Shown here piece by piece: positions 9,561 to 52,667 of a stretch of 64,000 bases of DNA. The first letter of the stretch is position 1. Each line of letters starts with the position of its first letter. Source of the stretch: an uncultured bacterium (GTDB lineage: Bacteria; Verrucomicrobiota; Kiritimatiellia; RFP12; UBA1067); NCBI GenBank assembly GCA_902802945.1, contig CADCOC010000010.1, forward strand, positions 1,049 through 65,048. Reading direction: 5' to 3'. The notes under the pieces are model-generated. The model worked only from the letters and a program-made list of their open reading frames with translations, made no database searches and was not told the origin of the DNA. Made by a program: the position numbers and the translations under genes.

Positions 9561-11366
9561 ATGAAGAAGTCCTGTCAGTTCTCCCTCGCCGTATCCGCGC
9601 TGGCCGCCCTCCTCATCACGGGCTGCGAGTCGATCGACACCTCCCTGTTCGGAGGTTCCTTCGGGCGCAACTCCACGGCGATGACGGCCGGCGGCGCCGT
9701 GGCCGGGCAGGACTACGTGATCGGCCTCAAGCCGAGCGAGGCGGCGCAGCAGTACTTCGCGTCCGCCTCGGCCTCCGACGCCAAGACGGTCACCGTGACG
9801 CCCGGCGACGACAAGGGGACGGGCGTCACGTGGACGGACGACGGCGGCATCACGATCCCTCCGGGCGTGACGATCGAGTTCGTGAACAAGGGCTACTGTC
9901 TCGATCCGCACCTCCCCGCCCCGAAGGCGGACGAGGAGATGCAGTTCATCAAGACATCCTGCCTGATCCCCACGCAGCTGCAGGGGACGTACAAAAACCT
10001 TCTGCGCCGCGCGGCGGCGGGCGACGAGGACGTGAAGAGCAACCTCCAGCACCTCATGTGGACGCTCCGCACGGCGGGCAGCAACGACGCCTACGCGAAG
10101 AACCTCACCGACCGCCAGCGCGAGATCCTCGCCGAGTGCGCCGAGGCCGGATCCTTCGACGGCTACTGCCAGGACCTGCACCGCTTCGACGAGTTGAAGA
10201 AACTCGCCATGGCACAAGTTGGTCAAGTGACCGACAAGCTTCAGGTCGAAATCGGCAACGTCACGTACAAGGTCTCGGACCTCCTCGACCCCGAGCTCGG
10301 CAAGCAGAAGGTGGCCGCGCACCTCGGCGAACTCATCCACATGAACGAGTACCTGCCCGTGGTGCACTCCGGCTTCAATTTTGGTGAACTGCAGAAGGGC
10401 ATCTACACGGACATCAAGGGCAACGGCACGCTCTCGTTCAAGGCGAAGGTCGCCAACTCCACCTCCGAGCCGTTCGTGTTCTACCCGATGGACTACGTCG
10501 CCCAGGTCGGCAGCGGCCAGAATATGCAAGGTGCCTTCTTCGCCGCCGCCGACAGCACAATGCGGCAGAGGACGACTAATGGTGAGCATAATAAAGTTGA
10601 AGTCGAAGAAGTTAAAAAACCATGTAATCATGTTTGGAGTGTCGCAAAAGTACCGGGAGATGAATACCAGAAGCGGCGAGGATTGAGAAAGGAATTTCAA
10701 AACGACATTGATAGTGCTCGACAAGATTTAATTAATCGCTTTCGAGAAACGATAACAGATGATGGCTTGGAACATGGGGCTTTGATTTATTATGAAGAGG
10801 GAGTGATTAAAGTCTCTGATTTCATTGACGGGAACAGGGACTGGGAAGTTCGGTTGATGTGGCCTATGGGTATGCTTACTGATTATGTCCAGCGAATTAC
10901 AATGCGAAATGGTAAATATTACGCATATAAGGGGCACACGGGGGAAATTGAAAAAGAAGTGCCGTCAATGTATGGGGATTATGCAAATAACATTTGGTAT
11001 ACTGTGGAAGAATCTGGATCATTTTCCCCAGGAGATGTAATTTCTGGCGTGATGAGAAATCATCCAAACGCAATTCCTCTTGAAATAGTGCATTCTCACC
11101 CTGGTAATAGGTTGTTAGGTAAAGTTGGAAATGGCTTTAGTGGTTCTGATATTTTGTTTGCTGATGAAATGGGAGTGAACATTTCTGTTATTTATAAGGA
11201 TTGGAGCAGTCTTTACAATGATGAAACATATTATCCTGATGGCAATGGTCAATATTCAAGTTTCTCAGAAGGTAAGAAAAAAGGACATTTAGATGATAGT
11301 GTCTCCGATGAGTTACTTCGGAAAATTATGAGGTATAGGTGTAAGAAATGTGGAGCAATACGATGA
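9561..11366 (+). CDS. lipoprotein of unknown function with a low-GC C-terminal JAB/MPN-like (DUF4329-like) domain
   Basis: ATG 9561 (MKKSCQF..LAALLITGC lipobox). C-terminal EHGALIYYEEG ... EIVHSHPGNRLLGKVGNGFSGSDILFA resembles the E / HxH / SxxD JAMM-type motif. The last ~270 codons are ~35-40% GC against ~65% upstream. Confidence 0.55.
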   Translation: MKKSCQFSLAVSALAALLITGCESIDTSLFGGSFGRNSTAMTAGGAVAGQDYVIGLKPSEAAQQYFASASASDAKTVTVTPGDDKGTGVTWTDDGGITIPPGVTIEFVNKGYCLDPHLPAPKADEEMQFIKTSCLIPTQLQGTYKNLLRRAAAGDEDVKSNLQHLMWTLRTAGSNDAYAKNLTDRQREILAECAEAGSFDGYCQDLHRFDELKKLAMAQVGQVTDKLQVEIGNVTYKVSDLLDPELGKQKVAAHLGELIHMNEYLPVVHSGFNFGELQKGIYTDIKGNGTLSFKAKVANSTSEPFVFYPMDYVAQVGSGQNMQGAFFAAADSTMRQRTTNGEHNKVEVEEVKKPCNHVWSVAKVPGDEYQKRRGLRKEFQNDIDSARQDLINRFRETITDDGLEHGALIYYEEGVIKVSDFIDGNRDWEVRLMWPMGMLTDYVQRITMRNGKYYAYKGHTGEIEKEVPSMYGDYANNIWYTVEESGSFSPGDVISGVMRNHPNAIPLEIVHSHPGNRLLGKVGNGFSGSDILFADEMGVNISVIYKDWSSLYNDETYYPDGNGQYSSFSEGKKKGHLDDSVSDELLRKIMRYRCKKCGAIR

Positions 11367-18534: not shown

Positions 18535-21500
18535 GTGCTTAAAATTTTTGTAGAGTTTGCCGCTTACGGTGTTGCCGCGATTCTGGCGGCGGTGTGTATT
18601 TTTGTCTGGGCGTGGAAGTGGAGCGGTTGGTCATGGTCTGTTGTGTCGCGGCAGCTGCGGCGCTCGGTGCTCGCGGTGATGGTCGTACTGGCCGTCGTCG
18701 CCACCATTGAAGCGCAGAAACGTTCCGGGAACGAAGCGACAGGAGTGTCGCTTCCCCGAGAAGAGCCACCCGTCGGGGAAGCGGCACTCTTGCCGCTTCC
18801 CGCCACCAACACCCTCCACTTCTCCACCATCGCCGTACCCACGAGCGGTACAGTTACGCTCACGGCCGCATGGCCCGAGAACTTCCTCACAGCGGGCCAG
18901 ACACTCGACATTCTGAGGAAAGAAGACCTCCGCGACGAGACGTGGATATGGCTCACGAACGGAGTTGTAGAGGCTGGCTCGACCAACATGACATGGACAA
19001 TCGAGAACCAGTCTCCGTCCAACTCATTCTACAAGGCCGTCGTGCGCGAATCGCTCACGGATATGGACGACCCCGACGGCGACGGGTTACCGAACGTCTA
19101 CGAACTCGCACATGGCATGAATCCGTGGCTGAACGACTACGCCCACGTACAAAAATTGACAGTTGGACCGAACGGCGAGTTTGGCGACATCTTTTCTGCG
19201 CTCGCGGAAAGCGAGGAGTATTCAATCATTGCTGTTACGTCTGGCACTTATCAAGTCAATGGTGGCGTCCAGATGCCTCCCCATCCCGTGATGGTTACGT
19301 GTGAAGACGGCTACGCAGTGTTCAGCGGCACGTCCCCAACGGCGATGTTCCTTCTCGGAAACGGACACGATAGCGGACATACGCTCTTCCGGAATCTGTA
19401 CCTGAACCTGACCTCGACAAGCGGCATGCAGGCCGGGTTCTGGTGCGGAGGGGGTTTGCCATGGGAAACGCCAGGCGCGTCGGCCGTGTTTGAGAACGTT
19501 CACATCCGTGCGCCGAATCCCGGCGTGGAGTATTTCGGTTGGCTGTTCTACGCCCCGTGTGACGCGCCCTCTGTGATCAAGGGGTGTTGCGTCAACGCTT
19601 CCGGCGCTGAATGGATTTATGCGGTTTTCGGTGACAACCCGCCGCCGGTTGTGGTAGAATCATGCACGTTCGTGAACTTCCCTGTCCAAAGCGATTATCA
19701 GAGCGCGGCCGTCGGACTGCGTTCCACGTATGCGAACGGCGCGATTACCTCCACGCCGCCCGTGATGGTGTCGCGTACCCTGTTTGACGCATCCTTCACC
19801 AACGCCTGGCCGCTCGCGCGCTTTGAGAACGCTGGAGATTTCCCAGTGACGATGACGGACTGCATTATTCCGTCCGCGCCAGTCTCGCCCGACTTCATGC
19901 CGAACGTTACCAATAATATGCACATCGTCACGTCGCAAGTCGCCTGGGCGGGATTCCCGCTCGCGGACTCGCCCGCCGTCGCCCTCGGTATCGGCGCGTT
20001 CGCGCCCCTTGCCAACGACCCGCTTGCAGATATGGACAATGACGGGATTTCTGACTACGAGGAGGTATTTGATTACGGTACGGATCCGTTTCTAAAGGAC
20101 TCGGACAACGACGGTATCTTGGATGACGTTGAAATCTTTGTCGACCATACGGACCCAAGCAATCCTTATTCGTTCAAACAAAATTTGACCGTGGCCGTGA
20201 CGAACAAGGCTTCGGCCGCATACGCGGTCTACACAGCATGGGGTATTTCGAATGTCGGGTGGGAGGCAAACGGCTTGGTAGCCTTCCCCGAAGGATTTGG
20301 CACGACCAACTACGTAGACGCCTCGTCACAGGGTGCGACGCACGTCAAGGCATTCTGTGATCTCAATGGGAACGGGACGTTTGATGCGGATTACGACATT
20401 CTGCGCGTGCGCTCCATCCCCCCTGGCAGTACGGCACGGGTGGACTTCGTTTTCGGCGATGTCGACGACGACGGTGTATCCGATGCGCAGGAACGCCAGC
20501 AGGGAACAGACCCGTATGACGGCAACAATTTTAGGTTGGTCGCGACGGTGAAAATTGAATCTTCCGACGTGGTGCCTAGCCTGACCAATTTTGTGGCATG
20601 GGGTTATTCAGCCGTTGGCTGGGAGCCGAACGACCTCGCGCGGTTCGCGGGAACTTCCCTGACGTTTCCGGTCAATGCGTCAGTCATAGGCGGTGAACTT
20701 TTTGTAAAGGTATTTCGCGACTTCAACGCGAACGGGGTCTACGATGTGGATGTGGACGCGCTCGTCTCAAATCGGCTGACGCGGGCGGATAATGGAAAGA
20801 CAGTGACGTTCAACATCGGCGATAGCGATGGAGACAAAATATCCGACAGTGTCGAGCTGGCTGAAGGTACGAATCCCCTCGACAAGCGTAATTACTGCTT
20901 CAACCTGTCGCTGACGTACACGGACGTGTTCCAGACGACGAACGCGCTTACCTTTGCGGCTTCGTTCGGGACGAATCGCGTGTACGGTCCGTGCGTTGTG
21001 GAGGGGAACGTCTGGAGCAACGACTTCGGACACTGTTCTACGACAACAAAGGAGCAGATTTCAGTGGACATGTGGGACGACATGAACCAGAACGGCGAAT
21101 GGGACTCGGGCGAGACAAGCAACAAGTACGTGATCGTAGTCACCGGTCATAACATGGTTGAGACGAATAAGCTGGCTTACAAGAACTTTGACCGCAACAA
21201 CAATGAACTGCCCGACTGGTGGGAGGCGCAGACAGGGCTTAGCAGTGTAACCAATGGTGGTGCTTATGTGGACACTGACGGAGACGGACTGATCAACCTG
21301 TACGAATATTGCTATGGATTCAATCCGCTTGTTTCGGACGCGATGAACACACTGCCCGCTGTGACGACGCGTACAACCAATGTGATGCTTGCTGATGCCG
21401 GAAAGCCGGCAGTTTCCCTACCGAAGTTCATTAACTACCTCTCAAACGGCCAGAACGGCCTCTTTGTTACAAACGCGCATTTCTGGGCGCGTGGATTGGA

Positions 21501-22173
21501 CACGTCATGTGTCAGCATGTGGAATTCATTTGATGGGAAAAAACGTGGTGGAACATTGATTAGTGCCCGTCACATTATTTTTGCCCATCATTTTCCACTG
21601 AGTCCAAATGACAAAGTGATATTCCTAGGAACGGATTCGACGGTTCATACAAACACAATTCTTGCAACGCAACGAGTGGCAGGAACAGATATCCGCATTG
21701 CGGCCTTACAGACCGAAGTTGATACAACCATCATCCATCCTGCAAAGATACTTCCTCCAGATTATGCCGACTACATTGGAATTGGTCAATATCTGCCAGT
21801 TCTACGCTTTGACCAAGACGAAAGATTTCTTGTTAGCGAAATATCCCAAGAAATACCGTTCTTCGCATCGGCGCAGTCCGAGTCCGAGGAGTCAATCATG
21901 ATGACATCGCCATCGTCTGAATTGTGGAGATCTTTTTATTCGCCCATCCGCAATCTTGATTCAGGTAATCCTTTCTTTCTGCTCGCCGGCAACGAGATTG
22001 TCTTGCTGGGTACACTTCATTGGCGATGGAACGGCTATTCTTCGTGTAGCGGCCCGTTCGTGACCACATACGCACAAGATATCCAGGATGCGATGGATAC
22101 GCTTGCGCCTGGTTATTCGTTATCGTATTTAGACTGTTCACCTTATGACAAATTACAGGAGGTGCCGAGATGA
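18535..22173 (+). CDS. very large secreted protein with thrombospondin type-3-like Ca-binding repeats and a C-terminal trypsin-fold-like domain
   Basis: Repeats DPDGDGLPNVYE, DMDNDGISDYEE, DSDNDGILDD, DVDDDGVSDAQE, DSDGDKISDS and DTDGDGLINLYEY. C-terminal H/D/S candidates TLISARHIIFAHH, DIRIAAL and LDSGNPFFLL have chymotrypsin-like spacing. Start may be GTG 18535 or GTG 18643 (MSRQLRRSVLAVMVVLAVVATIEA). Confidence 0.7.
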   Translation: MLKIFVEFAAYGVAAILAAVCIFVWAWKWSGWSWSVVSRQLRRSVLAVMVVLAVVATIEAQKRSGNEATGVSLPREEPPVGEAALLPLPATNTLHFSTIAVPTSGTVTLTAAWPENFLTAGQTLDILRKEDLRDETWIWLTNGVVEAGSTNMTWTIENQSPSNSFYKAVVRESLTDMDDPDGDGLPNVYELAHGMNPWLNDYAHVQKLTVGPNGEFGDIFSALAESEEYSIIAVTSGTYQVNGGVQMPPHPVMVTCEDGYAVFSGTSPTAMFLLGNGHDSGHTLFRNLYLNLTSTSGMQAGFWCGGGLPWETPGASAVFENVHIRAPNPGVEYFGWLFYAPCDAPSVIKGCCVNASGAEWIYAVFGDNPPPVVVESCTFVNFPVQSDYQSAAVGLRSTYANGAITSTPPVMVSRTLFDASFTNAWPLARFENAGDFPVTMTDCIIPSAPVSPDFMPNVTNNMHIVTSQVAWAGFPLADSPAVALGIGAFAPLANDPLADMDNDGISDYEEVFDYGTDPFLKDSDNDGILDDVEIFVDHTDPSNPYSFKQNLTVAVTNKASAAYAVYTAWGISNVGWEANGLVAFPEGFGTTNYVDASSQGATHVKAFCDLNGNGTFDADYDILRVRSIPPGSTARVDFVFGDVDDDGVSDAQERQQGTDPYDGNNFRLVATVKIESSDVVPSLTNFVAWGYSAVGWEPNDLARFAGTSLTFPVNASVIGGELFVKVFRDFNANGVYDVDVDALVSNRLTRADNGKTVTFNIGDSDGDKISDSVELAEGTNPLDKRNYCFNLSLTYTDVFQTTNALTFAASFGTNRVYGPCVVEGNVWSNDFGHCSTTTKEQISVDMWDDMNQNGEWDSGETSNKYVIVVTGHNMVETNKLAYKNFDRNNNELPDWWEAQTGLSSVTNGGAYVDTDGDGLINLYEYCYGFNPLVSDAMNTLPAVTTRTTNVMLADAGKPAVSLPKFINYLSNGQNGLFVTNAHFWARGLDTSCVSMWNSFDGKKRGGTLISARHIIFAHHFPLSPNDKVIFLGTDSTVHTNTILATQRVAGTDIRIAALQTEVDTTIIHPAKILPPDYADYIGIGQYLPVLRFDQDERFLVSEISQEIPFFASAQSESEESIMMTSPSSELWRSFYSPIRNLDSGNPFFLLAGNEIVLLGTLHWRWNGYSSCSGPFVTTYAQDIQDAMDTLAPGYSLSYLDCSPYDKLQEVPR
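18721..18801. repeat. in-frame composite palindromic mini-element (three palindromes)
   Basis: CGTTCC-G-GGAACG (18721-18733). GAAGCGACA-GGAG-TGTCGCTTC (18733-18754). GGGAAGCGGCA-CTCT-TGCCGCTTCCC (18775-18801). The last two are an inverted pair around CCCCGAG...CCGTCGGGG. Confidence 0.85.
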
Positions 22174-22880
22174 AGATTCCACGAAGCGATCTGGTGAAAC
22201 GGATGCTTTTGATAGCGTTCTCGAGCCTTGTTGTCTGCCTCGCCAATGCGGCAAATGTCATCTGGCGTGAAGGTTACGAAGGACAACGATTCGGATGGGC
22301 CGATTGGACAGGATGGGGAGGCCCTTCGGATGCTTGGGGGCTTGGAATCTCAGAAGTCGTTGGAGGAAGGTATTTTGAGGTTTATTTCTGGATGGAGACG
22401 CTTGTAGATGATGGAGGGACTTCGGTTCGCATTCATGCGTCAGATTTCTTGGCCGACATCCCTTTTGATCCTAATTATACAGGTTTCGTTCCCGTAAACG
22501 TTATTCAGGCGGAGGCGGGCGGCATCATCAGCGCGGCGAATACGAAGGGGCGTGACAATCGATATTTCTTTGCCAATGGTACCGATGTAGGCGACGAGTT
22601 GCGACGCGATTACGATATCATAATTCCACTTGAAGGTGATCGGAGATTCTACTTCGGACTCAGCATAGAAATGGATCCCAATCGTCTATATGGTTGGGTG
22701 GAGGCACAGGCGAACGAGAACGGCGAACTTTCGTCTTTGGCCTATGCTATCGACCTTGACGGCGGGCCTATGATCGTGGGGGGCGGCCCGGCTATTCCCG
22801 AGCCGTCGGCGGCGGTGCTGCTGCTCGTGGGCGGCGCGCTGCTGGCGTTAAGACGGAGGAGAACGAATCCCCGAATATGA
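22170..22880 (+). CDS. PEP-CTERM sorting-domain protein
   Basis: N-terminal signal peptide. C-terminal IPEPSAAVLLLVGGALLALRRRR. ATGA overlap with the upstream gene. Confidence 0.8.
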   Translation: MKIPRSDLVKRMLLIAFSSLVVCLANAANVIWREGYEGQRFGWADWTGWGGPSDAWGLGISEVVGGRYFEVYFWMETLVDDGGTSVRIHASDFLADIPFDPNYTGFVPVNVIQAEAGGIISAANTKGRDNRYFFANGTDVGDELRRDYDIIIPLEGDRRFYFGLSIEMDPNRLYGWVEAQANENGELSSLAYAIDLDGGPMIVGGGPAIPEPSAAVLLLVGGALLALRRRRTNPRI

Positions 22881-23497
22881 ACCTAAGATTGAAGAAAGTT
22901 TTGGCGAGTCTGTTGTGGGGTCTCGCGGTCATCCCAGTCTTTTCTGCAAATGTCGACTGGAACAAGGCATTTGTGGTTTATGAAGGACTGGATTATTCCG
23001 GGGTTTACGAGCAATACACGATGGGAAGCCCTTTTCTGAACATGAAGGCGTTGAGGAATGGCAACGCTCTTGAGATATGGGCGCAGCCAGAGGTGAATCT
23101 TGTGGCGGCAAATACATTTGTCCTACTGAGTAGCGTTTTGATGGAAAGTGTGATTTCACCCGAAATGATTTACGGCTCGTCCGATTACTTTGCCTATGCT
23201 GTCTGTACTGACTCCGTTGGGGGATACGAGGAGAAGGCTGACTATTCGGTGACAATTACTCAAGGCGAATCTGTTTATCTTGGGTTCGCCAGCCAACCGG
23301 CAACACTGACCGATCCTGTCACATGCGGCTGGATTGAGTTAGGCCTTGATGGCGAGGGATATTTGACCGTAATTCAATCGGCCTGGGATCGTGACGGTGA
23401 TCCGATTCGTGTGGGTGCCACCCCTGAACCGTCGTCGGCGCTGCTACTGCTCGTGGGCGGCGCGCTGCTTGCACTGCGGCGGCGGGCTTTGGTATAA
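22877..23497 (+). CDS. PEP-CTERM sorting-domain protein
   Basis: N-terminal signal peptide. C-terminal TPEPSSALLLLVGGALLALRRR. ATGA overlap with the upstream gene. Confidence 0.8.
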   Translation: MNLRLKKVLASLLWGLAVIPVFSANVDWNKAFVVYEGLDYSGVYEQYTMGSPFLNMKALRNGNALEIWAQPEVNLVAANTFVLLSSVLMESVISPEMIYGSSDYFAYAVCTDSVGGYEEKADYSVTITQGESVYLGFASQPATLTDPVTCGWIELGLDGEGYLTVIQSAWDRDGDPIRVGATPEPSSALLLLVGGALLALRRRALV

Positions 23498-23504: not shown

Positions 23505-26201
23505 ATGACAGCGCGTTATCCATCGTCTATCCGCGAGGAGGAACTGAAGAACAAGGTCGCCGCCGACTTCTTCGGCGCGTTCGACTGCACCCGCATCATC
23601 GGCAACGTGGATTTCTGCGTGGCGGCGAAGCGGAGCGCGCGTCCCGAGTCCCTCTATTGGGCCGAGGCGAAGAATCATCCGACCGATGTCCACCAGATGC
23701 TGGCCCAGCTGATCCTTACGATCGGCAGGGCGGCCAGCCCTCTGGCCGCTGCGGCGGGCGCGGGGCGACAACCCTACCATGCGGACGAACCTCCCAAGTT
23801 CGCCGGATGCTTCGACAACGAGAAGATCGCCTTCGTCGAGTACCACCACATCCTCCCCGTCTTCAACCTCAACGACTTCAACTGGACGCAGACGCCCTCC
23901 GCCGTGGACGGAAAGACCGTCGAGACCGTCCGCGGCGTCGTCCCCTCTGACAAGATCGTCGTGTTCCGCTTCGGCGCGGACGATGCGGAGATCAAGGCGT
24001 TCATCCGCCACAACTTCACGTCCGGCGAAGGCCCCGCACTCGCCACCCCCATCGACCGCAACAACTTCACCTTCATCTACCAGAAGTGGCGCGCCGAGGT
24101 GATGCCGCACATCGACGCTCCGTGGGACGTCCTCAAAAAGAAGTACGCCCTCTACGACCGAGACTTCTTCCTCGCCGAGATGAACGTGGACGACAACGGC
24201 ACGCCCGAGGTCGTGGACGACCGCCCCGCCGAGGACTTCTACATCACCTTCGACGTAAACGACAAGAAGCCGTATTGCATCCATCGCAAGAACGAGGACG
24301 AGTTTGACATCAGCATGTCTTTCGGCTTTAAACCCGACGGACTCTCCGCCTACGCCTCCTTCTGGCGGCGGTACAAGCGCCCGCCCAAGCGCGAATACTG
24401 GGACTTCATCGTCTCTCGCCTCGACCTGCTCGTTCCGCAGGACGTGCGCGAGCGCAAGGGATCTTTCTTCACGCCAGCCATCTGGGTTGAGAAGTCGCAG
24501 CAGTACATCGCCGCCGTGCTTGGTGAGAACTGGCAGGACGAATACTATGTGTGGGACTGTGCGGGCGGTACGGGCAACCTCGAGGTCGGTCTCACGAACA
24601 AGTACCGCGTCTGGGTCTCGACCCTCGACCAGCAGGATGTGGATGTGGTCAAGGAACGGGTAAGGAACGGTGCGAACCTCCTCGAAAGCCACGTGTTTCG
24701 CTTCGACTTCCTCAACGATCCCTTTGACAAGCTGCCGCAGGGGTTGAGGGACATTCTCGCCGATCCAGAAAAGCGTAAACGCCTTGTTGTCTACATTAAC
24801 CCGCCGTACGCTGAGGCGGGGGATGTCCGCCAGCGTTCTGGCACAGGAAAAAACAAAAATGATGTCTCGGTCGTCCATGTCACGTACGACCGTTACTTGG
24901 AGAAGATCGGTATTGCCGGTCGCGAACTTTTTGCGCAGTTTTTCATGCGCATCCATGATGAGATTCCTGGGTGCGTCCTTGCCGAGTTCTCGAAGCTGAA
25001 GCACCTTCAATCTCCCAACTTCAAGGCGTTTCGACAAGCGTTTCGCGGTACGCTCGAAAAGTGTTTCATCGTTCCCGCAGATACTTTCGACAATGTGAAG
25101 GGCGACTTCCCAATCGGTTTCTTCGTGTGGCGGCTAGAGGATCTTGCTTTCGCTACAGGGAGGATAGGAGATTGGGAGGTCGGGAGAGATTGTAAGCAAA
25201 CTCCTAAACTCCAAGTCTCCCAATCTCCCAGCAGCGAAAGCAATTCAACAAATGGCGTGTTCACGTCAACCGTGGCGGACGTGTACGATCGTAAGGGCAA
25301 GTTCATCGGCACGAAGACGATTCTCGCGTATGACGATGTGGCCAACATCGGGAAATGGGTAAACTCTTTTCGCCATGACGACGATGTGCATCTTGGCTTC
25401 ATGAGCAATGGGCGTAACGATTTCCAAAATACTAATCTTGTCTATTTCATTAATGACAGGAATCAATTGTCTACACCGCGAGGTTGGTGGATGACTCCAC
25501 CGAACTTGATTCCAATGTGTATTTTTGTCGCTGTGCGGCATAGCGTAAAGGCAACATGGTTGAATGACCGAGACACTTTTCTTTATCCAAATGACGGATG
25601 GCAGAATGATTTCGGTTTTCAGTCAGATTGCCTTGTGTATACGCTCTTTTCCGATTTCAACGCTATCAAGTCCAAGTATGGTGTCAACCATTGGATCCCG
25701 TTCACGGAGGAAGAGGTGGGGGCGAAGGATTGCTTCGCGAGCCACTTCATGAGTGACTGGCTGGCGGGGCGCGGGGCGGCGGCGCGCACGGGGTGCGCGC
25801 CCTACCAGGGGGACTTGTTCGCGGCAACGGGCGACACGCCCGTTGGCCTTGTGAACGGGCAAGATGCACGTTCCCCCAGTTGTGAAGCGGCGAGAGCGCC
25901 GCTTCCCCGACGGGCGCACCTCGGGGCACTGTCGCTTCCCGCGCGGGCGGTGATGGACGCCGGGCGGGAGTTGTGGCGGTACTACCACGCGCAGCCGGGT
26001 GCGAATCCGAACGCCTCTTACTACGACATCCGCCTGCATTTCCAGGGCGTGAAGCGCACCTCATCCGGCAAGGAACAGATGAACGCCACCTCCGCCGACG
26101 AAACCTACAACAGACTTCTTGCCGCCCTGCGCGCCGCCCACAAGGCCCTTGCCGCGCAGATCGCCCCGAAGGTGTACGAGTATGGGTTTTTGAAGCGTTA
26201 G
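23505..26201 (+). CDS. gamma-class N6-adenine DNA methyltransferase fused to an N-terminal PD-(D/E)xK-like region (MmeI-like type IIG/IIL RM candidate)
   Basis: Methyltransferase motif X GSFFTPAIWV, motif I YVWDCAGGTGNLE and motif IV VVYINPPYAEAG. N-terminal NVDF...YWAEAKNH resembles a D...ExK nuclease motif. 898 aa is close to MmeI size. Confidence 0.65.
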   Translation: MTARYPSSIREEELKNKVAADFFGAFDCTRIIGNVDFCVAAKRSARPESLYWAEAKNHPTDVHQMLAQLILTIGRAASPLAAAAGAGRQPYHADEPPKFAGCFDNEKIAFVEYHHILPVFNLNDFNWTQTPSAVDGKTVETVRGVVPSDKIVVFRFGADDAEIKAFIRHNFTSGEGPALATPIDRNNFTFIYQKWRAEVMPHIDAPWDVLKKKYALYDRDFFLAEMNVDDNGTPEVVDDRPAEDFYITFDVNDKKPYCIHRKNEDEFDISMSFGFKPDGLSAYASFWRRYKRPPKREYWDFIVSRLDLLVPQDVRERKGSFFTPAIWVEKSQQYIAAVLGENWQDEYYVWDCAGGTGNLEVGLTNKYRVWVSTLDQQDVDVVKERVRNGANLLESHVFRFDFLNDPFDKLPQGLRDILADPEKRKRLVVYINPPYAEAGDVRQRSGTGKNKNDVSVVHVTYDRYLEKIGIAGRELFAQFFMRIHDEIPGCVLAEFSKLKHLQSPNFKAFRQAFRGTLEKCFIVPADTFDNVKGDFPIGFFVWRLEDLAFATGRIGDWEVGRDCKQTPKLQVSQSPSSESNSTNGVFTSTVADVYDRKGKFIGTKTILAYDDVANIGKWVNSFRHDDDVHLGFMSNGRNDFQNTNLVYFINDRNQLSTPRGWWMTPPNLIPMCIFVAVRHSVKATWLNDRDTFLYPNDGWQNDFGFQSDCLVYTLFSDFNAIKSKYGVNHWIPFTEEEVGAKDCFASHFMSDWLAGRGAAARTGCAPYQGDLFAATGDTPVGLVNGQDARSPSCEAARAPLPRRAHLGALSLPARAVMDAGRELWRYYHAQPGANPNASYYDIRLHFQGVKRTSSGKEQMNATSADETYNRLLAALRAAHKALAAQIAPKVYEYGFLKR
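25167..25228. repeat. perfect 12-bp inverted repeat with 38-nt spacer inside the methyltransferase ORF
   Basis: GGAGATTGGGAG (25167-25178) pairs with CTCCCAATCTCC (25217-25228). Confidence 0.8.
25781..25940. repeat. ~160-nt in-frame chain of palindromic mini-elements
   Basis: In order: GGCGCGCA-CGGGG-TGCGCGCC+CTACCAGG; AACGGGCG-ACA-CGCCCGTT; ACGGGCA-AGA-TGCACGT; GAAGCGGCG-AGAG-CGCCGCTTC+CCCCGACGG; degenerate ...CACTGTCGCTTCCC. Confidence 0.85.
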
Positions 26202-47424: not shown

Positions 47425-48690
47425 ATGGAAGGCTCGATCCATCTGGTCGGCATCGGCGGCGTCGGGATGAGCGCGCTTGCGCAGGCTTATCTCGACGTCG
47501 GGTACGCCGTTTCGGGTGCAGACCGCTCTCTGCGCGCGGACGGGCGGTGCACGCCCGTCTTGGAGGCGCTGGCCACCGAAGGGGTTCGCCTGTTCCCCGA
47601 TGACGGATCGGGCGTTGGCGTCGGCACGGATCGCCTTGTGGTTTCAACGGCCATCGAGGATACGAACCCCGACCTCGCGGCTGCGCGCGCGCGCGGCATC
47701 CCCGTGGTCCACCGCGCGGCGGCGCTTTCCGAACTGCTTTCCGCGCGCAAGCTCGTTGCCGTGGCTGGCACGTGCGGTAAGTCCACTGTCACTGCTATTC
47801 TTGGGCATGTCCTTGTGGAATGCGGCTTCGACCCGCTCGTCGTCAACGGCGCGCAGGTCGTGGGCTGGGATGCAAACGGCACGCGCGTGGGGTCCGTGCG
47901 GAAGGGCGCGGGCGAATACGCCGTGGCGGAGGTCGATGAAAGCGACAAGTCGCTCACCGCGTTCCATCCGTACGCCGCGATTGTCACGAACGCCTCCGCC
48001 GACCACTACTCGAAGGAGGAGATGGCCGTCATCGACGGACGCGATCCGTCGGGGAAGCGGCACTCCTGCCGCTTCATTCATGAGGCGGAAGATGCGCTTG
48101 GCGTGTTCCCGATGCCTGGCGCGCACAACCGCGCGAACGCGCGCCTCGCGCTCGCGATGGCGATTGCGCTCGGGGCGGATCCCGCGAAGGCCGCCGCAGC
48201 GCTTGCCACGTTTCCCGGCGTGGAGCGCCGTCTTCAGCGCGTTGGTTCAGTCCTGTGTGGCGATCAAGAGGTCGCCGTCTACGATGACTACGCCCACAAT
48301 CCGGAGAAGCTTCACGCTATGTGGACTACGCTTGCGGAGGCGTATCCGCGCGGAGTGGCGGCGGTGTGGCGTCCGCACGGCTACGGCCCGCTGCGGAAGA
48401 TGCTCGAGCCGCTCGCGGCGGCGTTTCGCGGCGTGATGCGTCCGCAGGACGCGCTCGTGCTGCTGCCCGTCTATGACGCGGGCGGCACAGCGGACCGCAG
48501 CGTCAACTCCGACGCCCTCGCGGCGCTTATGGGAGACGCGCCTGGGGTCGTGAAGCTTGTTTCCGACTTAGAGGAGGCGGAGGAATATCTCCGCGCGCGC
48601 GCCGACGCCTTCGGCGCAATCGTTACGGCTGGTGCGCGCGATCCGGGATTGCCCGTGCTCGCGCGCCGTCTCGCCGGAAAGGAAAGATAA
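47425..48690 (+). CDS. murC: UDP-N-acetylmuramate--L-alanine ligase-like Mur ligase, compact form
   Basis: Motifs IHLVGIGGVGMSALAQ, VAVAGTCGKSTVTA, AEVDESDKS, VTNASADH, PGAHNRANA and YDDYAHNPEK. 421 aa. About 50 aa shorter than my recollection of E. coli MurC between the ADH and PGxHN motifs. Confidence 0.72.
   Translation: MEGSIHLVGIGGVGMSALAQAYLDVGYAVSGADRSLRADGRCTPVLEALATEGVRLFPDDGSGVGVGTDRLVVSTAIEDTNPDLAAARARGIPVVHRAAALSELLSARKLVAVAGTCGKSTVTAILGHVLVECGFDPLVVNGAQVVGWDANGTRVGSVRKGAGEYAVAEVDESDKSLTAFHPYAAIVTNASADHYSKEEMAVIDGRDPSGKRHSCRFIHEAEDALGVFPMPGAHNRANARLALAMAIALGADPAKAAAALATFPGVERRLQRVGSVLCGDQEVAVYDDYAHNPEKLHAMWTTLAEAYPRGVAAVWRPHGYGPLRKMLEPLAAAFRGVMRPQDALVLLPVYDAGGTADRSVNSDALAALMGDAPGVVKLVSDLEEAEEYLRARADAFGAIVTAGARDPGLPVLARRLAGKER
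47539..47559. repeat. GC hairpin mini-element inside murC (GACGGGCG-GTGCA-CGCCCGTC)
   Basis: Perfect 8-bp stem. Same ACGGGCR/YGCCCGT stem family as 3970-3987 and 25826-25871. Confidence 0.7.
48046..48075. repeat. 30-nt hairpin mini-element inside murC
   Basis: CCGTCGGGGAAGCGGCACTCCTGCCGCTTC matches 18770-18799 at 29 of 30 positions, but is read here as PSGKRHSCRF rather than (P)VGEAALLPL. Confidence 0.88.
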
Positions 48691-51270: not shown

Positions 51271-52667
51271 CCATGAAAGTAAACAGAAGATCGTTCATCC
51301 AGACGGCGATTGCGGCGGGCGCGTATTCCTGCTTCGCGGGAAGCCGCGCGTTCAAGTCCGGCGACAAGGTGCGCCTCGCGTGCGTGGGCATCGGCCAGCA
51401 GGCGTGGGGCGACATCAGGAGCTTCGCCGGCACGAAGCTCGTCGAGATCGCCGCGCTGTGTGACACGGACCTCGATGGCAAGCAGTGTGTCGCGGCGTTG
51501 AAGCGCTATCCCAACGTGCCGCGCTTCACCGACTTCAGGAAGATGCTGGACGCGATGGAGGGCAAGATCGACGCGGTCGCCGTCATGACGCCCGACTTCT
51601 CCCACTTCCCCGCGCTGATGGCCGCGATGAAGCGCGGGCTCCCCGTGTTCTCCGAAAAACCGCTCGCCCACACGTTCGAGGAGTGCGAGCTGCTGATGAA
51701 GGCCGCCGCGAAGTACGGCGTCGCCACGCAGATGGGCAACCAGGGGCACAGCGGGGCGAACTACTGGCAGTTCAAGCACTACGTCGAGACGGGCGTCATC
51801 GACGTTTCGCAGCTGAAGCACCTCACGGCGCACATGAACAACCCGCGCCGCTGGCACAAGTGGAACGGAAAGGTCTCCGCGTTCCCGACCGGCGAGAAGA
51901 TGCCGAAGGGGATTGACTGGGACACGTGGCTCGGCACCGCGACGTACCACGAATACTCGAAGGACTACGTGCAGGGCGAGTGGCGCAGCTGGTACGACTT
52001 CGGCAACGGCGCGCTCGGCGACTGGGGCGCACACACGATGGACACGATGCACCGCTTCTTCGACCTGGGGCTGCCGACGGAAGTCTCGATCCGCGACGTC
52101 AAGGGCTGGAACCCGTTCGTGTTCCCGATGCAGGACACGCTCACGTTCAAGTTCGCGGCGAAAGGAAAGCGTCCCGCGATCGAGCTCGACTGGTACGAAG
52201 GCACCGGCAACAAGCCGACGCTGCCGAAGGGATACCGTCCGCAGGGCTGGAACCCCGACATCCCCGCCGCGAAGGGCTCGACGGCGGCCGACGCCGCGAA
52301 GCGGCTCGTCCCCGGCAAGTTCTTCGAGATGAAGGACGGGACGGTCTGGCAGGGCGCGTCGCACGGTTCGCCGATCCTGATGTGCGACACGGACGGCAAG
52401 GTGCCGAAGTACCCGAAGCCGGGCTCGAACCACTACAAGAACTTCCTCCTCGCGGTCATGGGCAAGGAGCAGACGCGCTCTCCCTTCTCCGTCACGGGGC
52501 CGCTCTCGGAGGTCTTCTGCCTCGGCTGCATCGCCCAGCGCCTCAACCGCGGGTTCAAGTTCGACCCGACGACGAAGCAGATCGTCGGCGACGACGAGGC
52601 CAACGCACTCCTGAAGGGCTCGAAGGGCACTCCGCGCAAGGGCTGGGAAGAGTTCTACAGGGTGTAG
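51267..52667 (+). CDS. Gfo/Idh/MocA family oxidoreductase with a twin-arginine signal
   Basis: Tat-like NRRSFIQTAIAAGA. Rossmann motif LACVGIGQQAWGD. 466 aa. Confidence 0.82.
   Translation: MTMKVNRRSFIQTAIAAGAYSCFAGSRAFKSGDKVRLACVGIGQQAWGDIRSFAGTKLVEIAALCDTDLDGKQCVAALKRYPNVPRFTDFRKMLDAMEGKIDAVAVMTPDFSHFPALMAAMKRGLPVFSEKPLAHTFEECELLMKAAAKYGVATQMGNQGHSGANYWQFKHYVETGVIDVSQLKHLTAHMNNPRRWHKWNGKVSAFPTGEKMPKGIDWDTWLGTATYHEYSKDYVQGEWRSWYDFGNGALGDWGAHTMDTMHRFFDLGLPTEVSIRDVKGWNPFVFPMQDTLTFKFAAKGKRPAIELDWYEGTGNKPTLPKGYRPQGWNPDIPAAKGSTAADAAKRLVPGKFFEMKDGTVWQGASHGSPILMCDTDGKVPKYPKPGSNHYKNFLLAVMGKEQTRSPFSVTGPLSEVFCLGCIAQRLNRGFKFDPTTKQIVGDDEANALLKGSKGTPRKGWEEFYRV

Follow-up and report, generated by a model that had tools for sequence, protein, structure and literature searches.

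A palindromic REP doublet in frame in the linker of an exported protein of an uncultured Kiritimatiellae bacterium, and its probable replacement of another repeat family

We analysed a window of 64,000 nucleotides (contig C10:1049-65048) from the assembly of an uncultured bacterium of the Kiritimatiellae, which comprises 5.8 Mb in 300 contigs, has 60% G+C and is 92.9% complete. A forward-strand gene at 18535..22173, with the start codon GTG, encodes an exported TSP3-repeat protein of 1212 aa (Pfam TSP3_bac, 4.5e-21). Its first part (18535..18720, + strand) codes for an N-terminal hydrophobic or signal-anchor region that ends in IEAQK. Directly beyond this lies a run of three palindromes (18721-18801), which the first-pass annotation had described as one composite element inserted in a tolerant linker. 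The gene two positions downstream of this host gene (22877-23497) has a PEP-CTERM motif at its end, with a Pfam E-value of 3e-4 that is just above the cut-off.

All three palindromes are present at 18721-18801, as first reported. The first of them, P1 (18721..18733), reads CGTTCC-G-GGAACG. An inverted-repeat search returned the other two as perfect stems, namely P2 (18733-18754, with arms at 18733-18741 and 18746-18754) and P3 (18776-18801, with arms at 18776-18786 and 18791-18801). Together with the motifs CCCGA and TCGGG, P2 and P3 make up two 27-nt arms (18733-18759 and 18773-18799), 89% complementary to each other, with a 13-nt spacer (18760..18772) between them. The doublet at 18733-18799 consists of two inverted 27-nt units, each with a 9-bp stem, a 4-nt loop and a CCCGA tag. 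We refer to the family of such units as REP-1. Unit 1 (18733..18759, + strand) lies in forward orientation, with the ACA/TGT stem variant, a GGAG loop and the CCCGA tag; unit 2 (18773..18799, − strand) is inverted, with the GCA/TGC stem variant and the tag TCGGG. The description as a composite of three palindromes is right for P2 and P3, which are family units, but not for P1, which lies outside the family and was rejected as a component of the element, being unique in the genome. Palindromes with 6-bp arms and a 1-nt spacer have a genomic background of 0.4 per kb, and P1 is probably a chance occurrence or a by-product of the junction.

Chance as the origin of the palindromes is ruled out by shuffles and reversed-pattern controls. 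The 9-mer core of the repeat occurs 10 times in the window versus 2.2 expected, and the 22-nt hairpin pattern occurs 4 times versus 0.10 expected. The RNA fold of the segment is a single long hairpin (−53.4 kcal/mol; z = −7.2), and 0 of 200 shuffles fold as well; the fold as DNA is also far outside the range of shuffles. No Rfam family matched, the best scores being 15–27 bits versus cut-offs of 60–168, and the matches resembled those of generic hairpins. A second REP-1 site in the window (25884..25940, + strand) had been said to share the layout of the doublet. The plan is indeed alike, with an intact forward unit, a 10-nt spacer and an inverted unit, but the inverted unit there is truncated and has lost its 5′ arm. 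A third site is a REP-1 singlet (48049..48075, − strand), in frame within a Mur ligase gene.

REP-1 is a dispersed family. Hairpins of the form GAAGCG-N3, a 3–4-nt loop and N3-CGCTTC occur 75 times in the genome as perfect copies. A genome-wide census, which the first-pass annotation had proposed as a check, gave 59 exact matches to the 27-mer pattern (27 forward and 32 reverse), versus none for the reversed control. A looser census called 111 REP-1 units in 84 clusters, with 78 units in 55 clusters being clear, tagged members. Each oriented unit is made up of a 9-bp stem, a loop and the tag CCCGA. The loop is AGAG in 54 units, GGAG in 12 and TGAG in 8; the tag (TCGGG/CCCGA) is exact in 68 of the 111 loosely called units and has at most one mismatch in 15 more. 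Among the 78 clear units, stem pair 7 is G-C in 58 and A-T in 20, while pair 9 is A-T in 46, G-C in 31 and mismatched in a single unit. Because pairs 7 and 9 covary across REP-1, the compensated difference between the stems of P2 and P3, which had been noticed at the locus, is real and is a property of the whole family.

The units are arranged in several ways. Of the 84 clusters, 61 are singlets, while doublets are head-to-head in 8 cases and tail-to-tail in 10; the remainder are a small number of direct pairs and longer arrays. Spacers in the head-to-head doublets measure 12–14 nt, for a total length of 66–68 nt. Counting adjacent head-to-head pairs of units rather than doublets gives eleven in the genome, i.e., the eight doublets and three pairs that begin longer arrays; their spacers are 12–14 nt, except for one of 30 nt that contains another repeat. 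REP-1 has the defining features of a REP, being a short palindrome with many dispersed copies on both strands, and 18733-18799 has those of a REPIN, being an inverted doublet with a short spacer that forms one long hairpin. The tetranucleotides GTAG and CGTC are absent from the stem end of REP-1. As a separate observation, tail-to-tail REP-1 doublets with a 7-nt spacer form part of a longer composite element; its terminal inverted repeats have CTGCATCCCTCCAAAA at their ends, beside GTAACCGGTCACTCAT. The composite element with CTGCATCCCTCCAAAA ends has the look of a MITE, and there are at least seven copies in the genome under study (G000; C21:~11060-11190, C110:~10500-10650, C98:~9850-9990, C43, C139, C231 and C1:~51900-52060).

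The 27-mer is found at least once in 14 of 33 genomes of the genus, reaching 13–89 copies in several, and has 0 copies in the other 19. Beyond the genus, 143 more genomes of the order were sampled, and 2 of them had stray matches, one or two each. On this sampling, REP-1 appears nearly confined to the genus within the order.

The doublet would lie outside the coding sequence if the gene started further downstream, in which case the palindromes would form a 5′ untranslated regulatory or terminator structure. There are GTG and TTG codons inside the element, and a survey of intragenic REPs cautioned that a REP mapped to a predicted N-terminus may in many cases lie outside the gene (Di Nocera, De Gregorio and Rocco, 2013; PMC3733652). 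We nevertheless consider a downstream start barely credible. The closest ortholog (in genome G020) has ATG where GTG stands here, behind the same purine-rich upstream stretch. The 62 codons upstream of the doublet are conserved as protein to about 37% identity: across codons 2–63, the two orthologs differ by 9 synonymous and 4 non-synonymous changes (92.5% nt identity); in the 200 codons past the linker there are 14 synonymous and 6 non-synonymous changes. Orthologs to about 37% identity keep two hydrophobic segments, and the AQK that follows the second of them (18712-18720) is invariant in 10 of 10 aligned orthologs over the same range. AQK is probably a processing or anchoring site. A downstream start would delete the export signal. 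The element also does not look like an intrinsic terminator, the hairpin being followed not by a T-run but by CCGCCACCAAC, inside the open frame. The caution about N-termini does not apply to 18733-18799, to judge from these sequence comparisons, and we treat the doublet as coding.

Read in the frame of the gene, the doublet contains no stop codon and encodes residues 67–89. The stretch after AQK is the least conserved part of the ortholog alignment. An AlphaFold model built from a shallow alignment, with a mean pLDDT of 47, has a helix that ends at residue 63, then a stretch free of secondary structure (residues 64–94) and after it beta strands; in this low-confidence model, pLDDT is <50 at residues 62–99. 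The model is consistent with residues 64–94 forming a linker. The proposal of a tolerant linker after IEA-QK is borne out in that foreign repeat DNA sits there, in frame and directly after the conserved hydrophobic segment. Conservation of amino acids with synonymous variation that breaks the stems, a pattern that had been set against the proposal, is not seen for the segment.

Comparison with orthologs showed that the site is occupied by a different repeat in related genomes. The closest ortholog differs from the host gene by a 77-nt segment (18723..18799, + strand), in place of which G020 has 83 unrelated nt; the flanks on both sides resume at 92–96% identity. The unrelated sequence forms a direct doublet of a different hairpin, which we call REP-2, consisting of GGGACAACGGGC, a 3–5-nt loop and GCCCGTTG (orthologous site at L002:~1745-1830). 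REP-2 is itself dispersed, with 73 copies in the genome under study, 87 in G020, occurrences in 17 of the 33 congeners and none in the control. Orthologs in G005, G006 and the metagenome contigs L047–L052 have one or two REP-2 units at the same site, where they encode TGTTGxPPV and have stems that are intact in some cases and decayed in others. The most distant orthologs (L053–L056) have an unrelated linker and no hairpin. Since REP-2 occupies the site in related orthologs, it is the older occupant in the clade, and REP-1 has replaced it in the lineage of the genome under study. The expectation that homologs lack the ~80-nt segment was right, with one refinement: the site is not empty, holding a REP-2 doublet in orthologs, so the change is a replacement and not a simple insertion. 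The doublet is 67 nt long, which is not a multiple of three, and a plain insertion would shift the frame; the actual change gained 10 nucleotides beyond the doublet and lost 83, and the frame is kept across the swap (linker of 96 nt versus 102 nt). The two REP-2 loop variants stand in opposite order in G020 and L052, which means that the site was reworked more than once.

The exchange of 77 nt for 83 nt is clean, the flanks are highly conserved and there is no target-site duplication, which is also what would be expected if a REP-1 patch had been copied in from another strain's allele by homologous recombination or gene conversion through those flanks. That no cognate transposase was found in the assembly (see below) fits this route as well. 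We regard it as unlikely, though with an appreciable chance of being correct: no donor allele bearing REP-1 was found among the 33 congeners or the metagenome contigs, and recombination would bear only on how the element arrived, not on what it is. The lack of a flank duplication relative to the G020 allele also gives no sign of a MITE derived from a DDE-type IS at the site.

Extragenic placement, a trait of REPs and REPINs, does not hold for REP-1: the copy studied here is within a CDS, and at least 20 of the 55 clear clusters lie in frame within coding ORFs, as judged by a crude coding-potential test that asked for long ORFs looking coding on both sides. A Pfam check placed 10 of 10 in-frame clusters in recognisable genes, mostly between domains. 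The hosts are an amidase, MetH, a MiaB-like enzyme, GlmM, HrpA, a GH2 beta-galactosidase, PurL, a type ISP restriction enzyme, an OadA-like carboxylase and an MFS transporter. In the Mur ligase gene of the window (47425-48690; Pfam Mur_ligase N, M and C), the singlet is at about residues 209–217, in the middle domain. The linkers of the genes for MetH (L039; G000 C24:14610-17192) and the MiaB-like enzyme (L040; G000 C26:22790-24217) contain 3–4 REP units; in five congeners compared, the same positions hold other REP families, other copy numbers or no repeat. A gene beside a transposase gene in G006 (L020:3-1421, − strand), which we take to be 3-isopropylmalate dehydrogenase-like, has an in-frame REP doublet just before a conserved VTSVDKANV motif, and three repeat-encoded units at its predicted N-terminus too.

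These other hosts bear on whether the hairpin persists because it serves the mRNA, for instance through ribosome pausing after the signal-anchor that aids membrane targeting, or through protection of the transcript. REP-1 copies in genes use every reading frame, and MetH, PurL and GlmM, unrelated enzymes of the cytoplasm, are among their hosts, which counts against such a function. The RNA fold is very stable, and orthologs have hairpin-forming repeats at the same codon positions, both of which a function of this kind would predict; yet the REP-2 stems have decayed in several orthologs in which the peptide persists, and the hairpin is missing altogether in the distant orthologs L053–L056. We consider an mRNA function very unlikely. 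A REPIN held in a linker that tolerates it is the reading that we prefer.

REPs are often partnered with a RAYT, a Y1/HUH tyrosine transposase, and a Pfam Y1_Tnp search in five congeners rich in REP-1 revealed such a gene. In G042, a Y1_Tnp ORF lies between two REP-1 arrays. The RAYT-like protein (RAYT-1) is 99–100% identical in G042, G023 and G021, with 3–5 REP-1 units on each side of its gene that alternate in orientation and stem variant. Two RAYT-like ORFs scored 37.6 and 32.7 bits for PF01797 (Y1_Tnp; cut-off 23). The best NCBIfam match of the RAYT-like protein is NF047646 (REP_Tyr_transpos, REP-associated tyrosine transposase), at 60.4 and 66.7 bits for the two ORFs, below the equivalog cut-off of 80. 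In the ORFs, the motifs HVHVL and, C-terminally, YIK can be made out. G006 has a paralogue of 51% identity whose gene is flanked by units of a REP-1 subfamily in which the loop is 3 nt long; in G005, G047 and G008, the genes for paralogues of ~40% identity have REP-2 arrays on their flanks. Horizontal transfer of RAYT-1, suspected from its 99% amino-acid identity in three species, was ruled out, the species being close: they share 93% nt identity at a housekeeping locus versus 96% at the RAYT locus.

The genome under study differs. A tblastn search of its assembly found no close homolog of any of these proteins, and the sole RAYT-like remnant is a truncated fragment of 40% identity, which contains the HVHV motif and lies at the extreme end of contig C270 (3178-3339). 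A full copy of this gene may be unassembled. Repeat arrays do break assemblies, and the G042 contig ends within its REP-1 array. Five Y1_Tnp matches in the genome under study were inspected, and none of the five is flanked by REP-1; a transposase between REP-1 pairs 1.5–2.5 kb apart was ruled out as well, the genes there encoding an AAA ATPase. Two of the five matches are flanked by a different repeat, GGGGACTGTCCCC. At L013 (G000 C65:9074-12253) and L014 (G000 C114:13793-16978), Y1_Tnp ORFs of about 310–380 aa occur with arrays of the GGGGACTGTCCCC palindrome, and these ORFs and arrays may be a separate REP-RAYT pair. Judged by gene neighbourhood, the REP-1 family is linked to a RAYT-like gene in congeners; no such link was found in the genome under study.

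Several known systems resemble REP-1. In E. coli, BIMEs consist of alternating REP variants in alternating orientation, in arrays of variable copy number; they are extragenic and bind IHF and gyrase. REP-1 has in common with them the alternation of variants and orientation and the arrays of variable copy number, whereas the REP-1 copy described here is intragenic. In Rickettsia, palindromic elements (RPEs) were reportedly described by Ogata et al. in 2000 as selfish palindromic repeats in frame in protein-coding genes, tolerated in surface or linker segments. In-frame insertion is the shared feature; the sequences are unrelated, RPE-1 is longer and the host is a different one.

Closest in behaviour are the in-frame intragenic REPs described by Di Nocera, De Gregorio and Rocco in 2013 (PMC3733652), who also mention RPEs. 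Intragenic REPs were most numerous in Opitutus terrae and in Rickettsia conorii, the latter being RPEs, and dimers encoded 20–30 amino acids (PMC3733652). The intragenic REPs of O. terrae resemble REP-1 in that singlets and dimers lie in frame in known genes and several REP families coexist in one genome. They belong to the GTAG and CGTC super-families, whereas REP-1 has neither tag, and the REP-1 case goes beyond that study in that, between orthologs, one family has given way to another with the codon position unchanged. REPIN-RAYT systems (Bertels and Rainey 2011, PMC3116915; PMC3337134) are alike in their short palindromic unit with an asymmetric tag, their short-spacer inverted doublets that fold to one long hairpin in tens of copies per genome, their repeat-flanked Y1/HUH transposase gene (for REP-1, in congeners) and their patchy, lineage-specific distribution. 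They differ in that the classical tag is GTAG and that of REP-1 is TCGGG, in being extragenic whereas more than a third of REP-1 clusters are intragenic, in having a known cognate RAYT, which for REP-1 was not found in the genome under study, and in phylum. REP-1 is a new REP family, with an in-frame behaviour that is known though uncommon. What we have not found described is that one REP family takes the place of another at a single intragenic position, along with comparable turnover in further linkers.

Taken together, REP-1 is a dispersed family with covarying stems that is linked to a RAYT in congeners and lies inside a CDS here. It is very probable that 18733-18799 is a REPIN of this family, in frame in the linker of the exported TSP3-repeat protein, where it replaced REP-2. 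Counting against this reading are the failure to find a close RAYT-1 or RAYT-2 gene (the transposase genes tied to REP-1 and REP-2) in the assembly, the tag TCGGG in place of the classical GTAG, the RAYT score under the NCBIfam equivalog cut-off and the 67-nt length of the doublet, which as a plain insertion would shift the frame. In mechanistic terms, two inverted copies of the genus-specific REP-1 around a 13-nt spacer would form the REPIN, the family being partnered in congeners with a RAYT-type Y1/HUH tyrosine transposase. The landing site would be an unconstrained linker, bounded by the N-terminal signal-anchor on one side and by the first beta-rich domain on the other. Arrival may have been by RAYT-mediated single-strand transposition or by REP-targeted exchange, and the element would persist through the tolerance of the linker rather than through a function.

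For annotation, this means that the odd palindromic peptide is repeat DNA and not a protein motif. The work adds to the known REPs a family that lacks both the GTAG and the CGTC tag, along with its RAYT in congeners, in a poorly studied phylum. It also dates the replacement of one REP family by another, which took place at one codon position in genes that otherwise remain 92–96% identical. Should replacement of this kind prove general, it would have a bearing on the choice of targets by RAYTs and on selfish repeats as suppliers of protein linker sequence. Tentatively, and as a possibility rather than a probability, we suggest that flexible in-gene linkers of this Kiritimatiellae genus are recurrent landing pads in which REP families succeed one another, from REP-2 to REP-1 at this site and with at least four families in the MetH linker. 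If this is true, RAYT-driven insertion would target hairpins already in place, including those that belong to a different family, and REP-encoded peptides would be a steady source of linker sequence for exported and housekeeping proteins.
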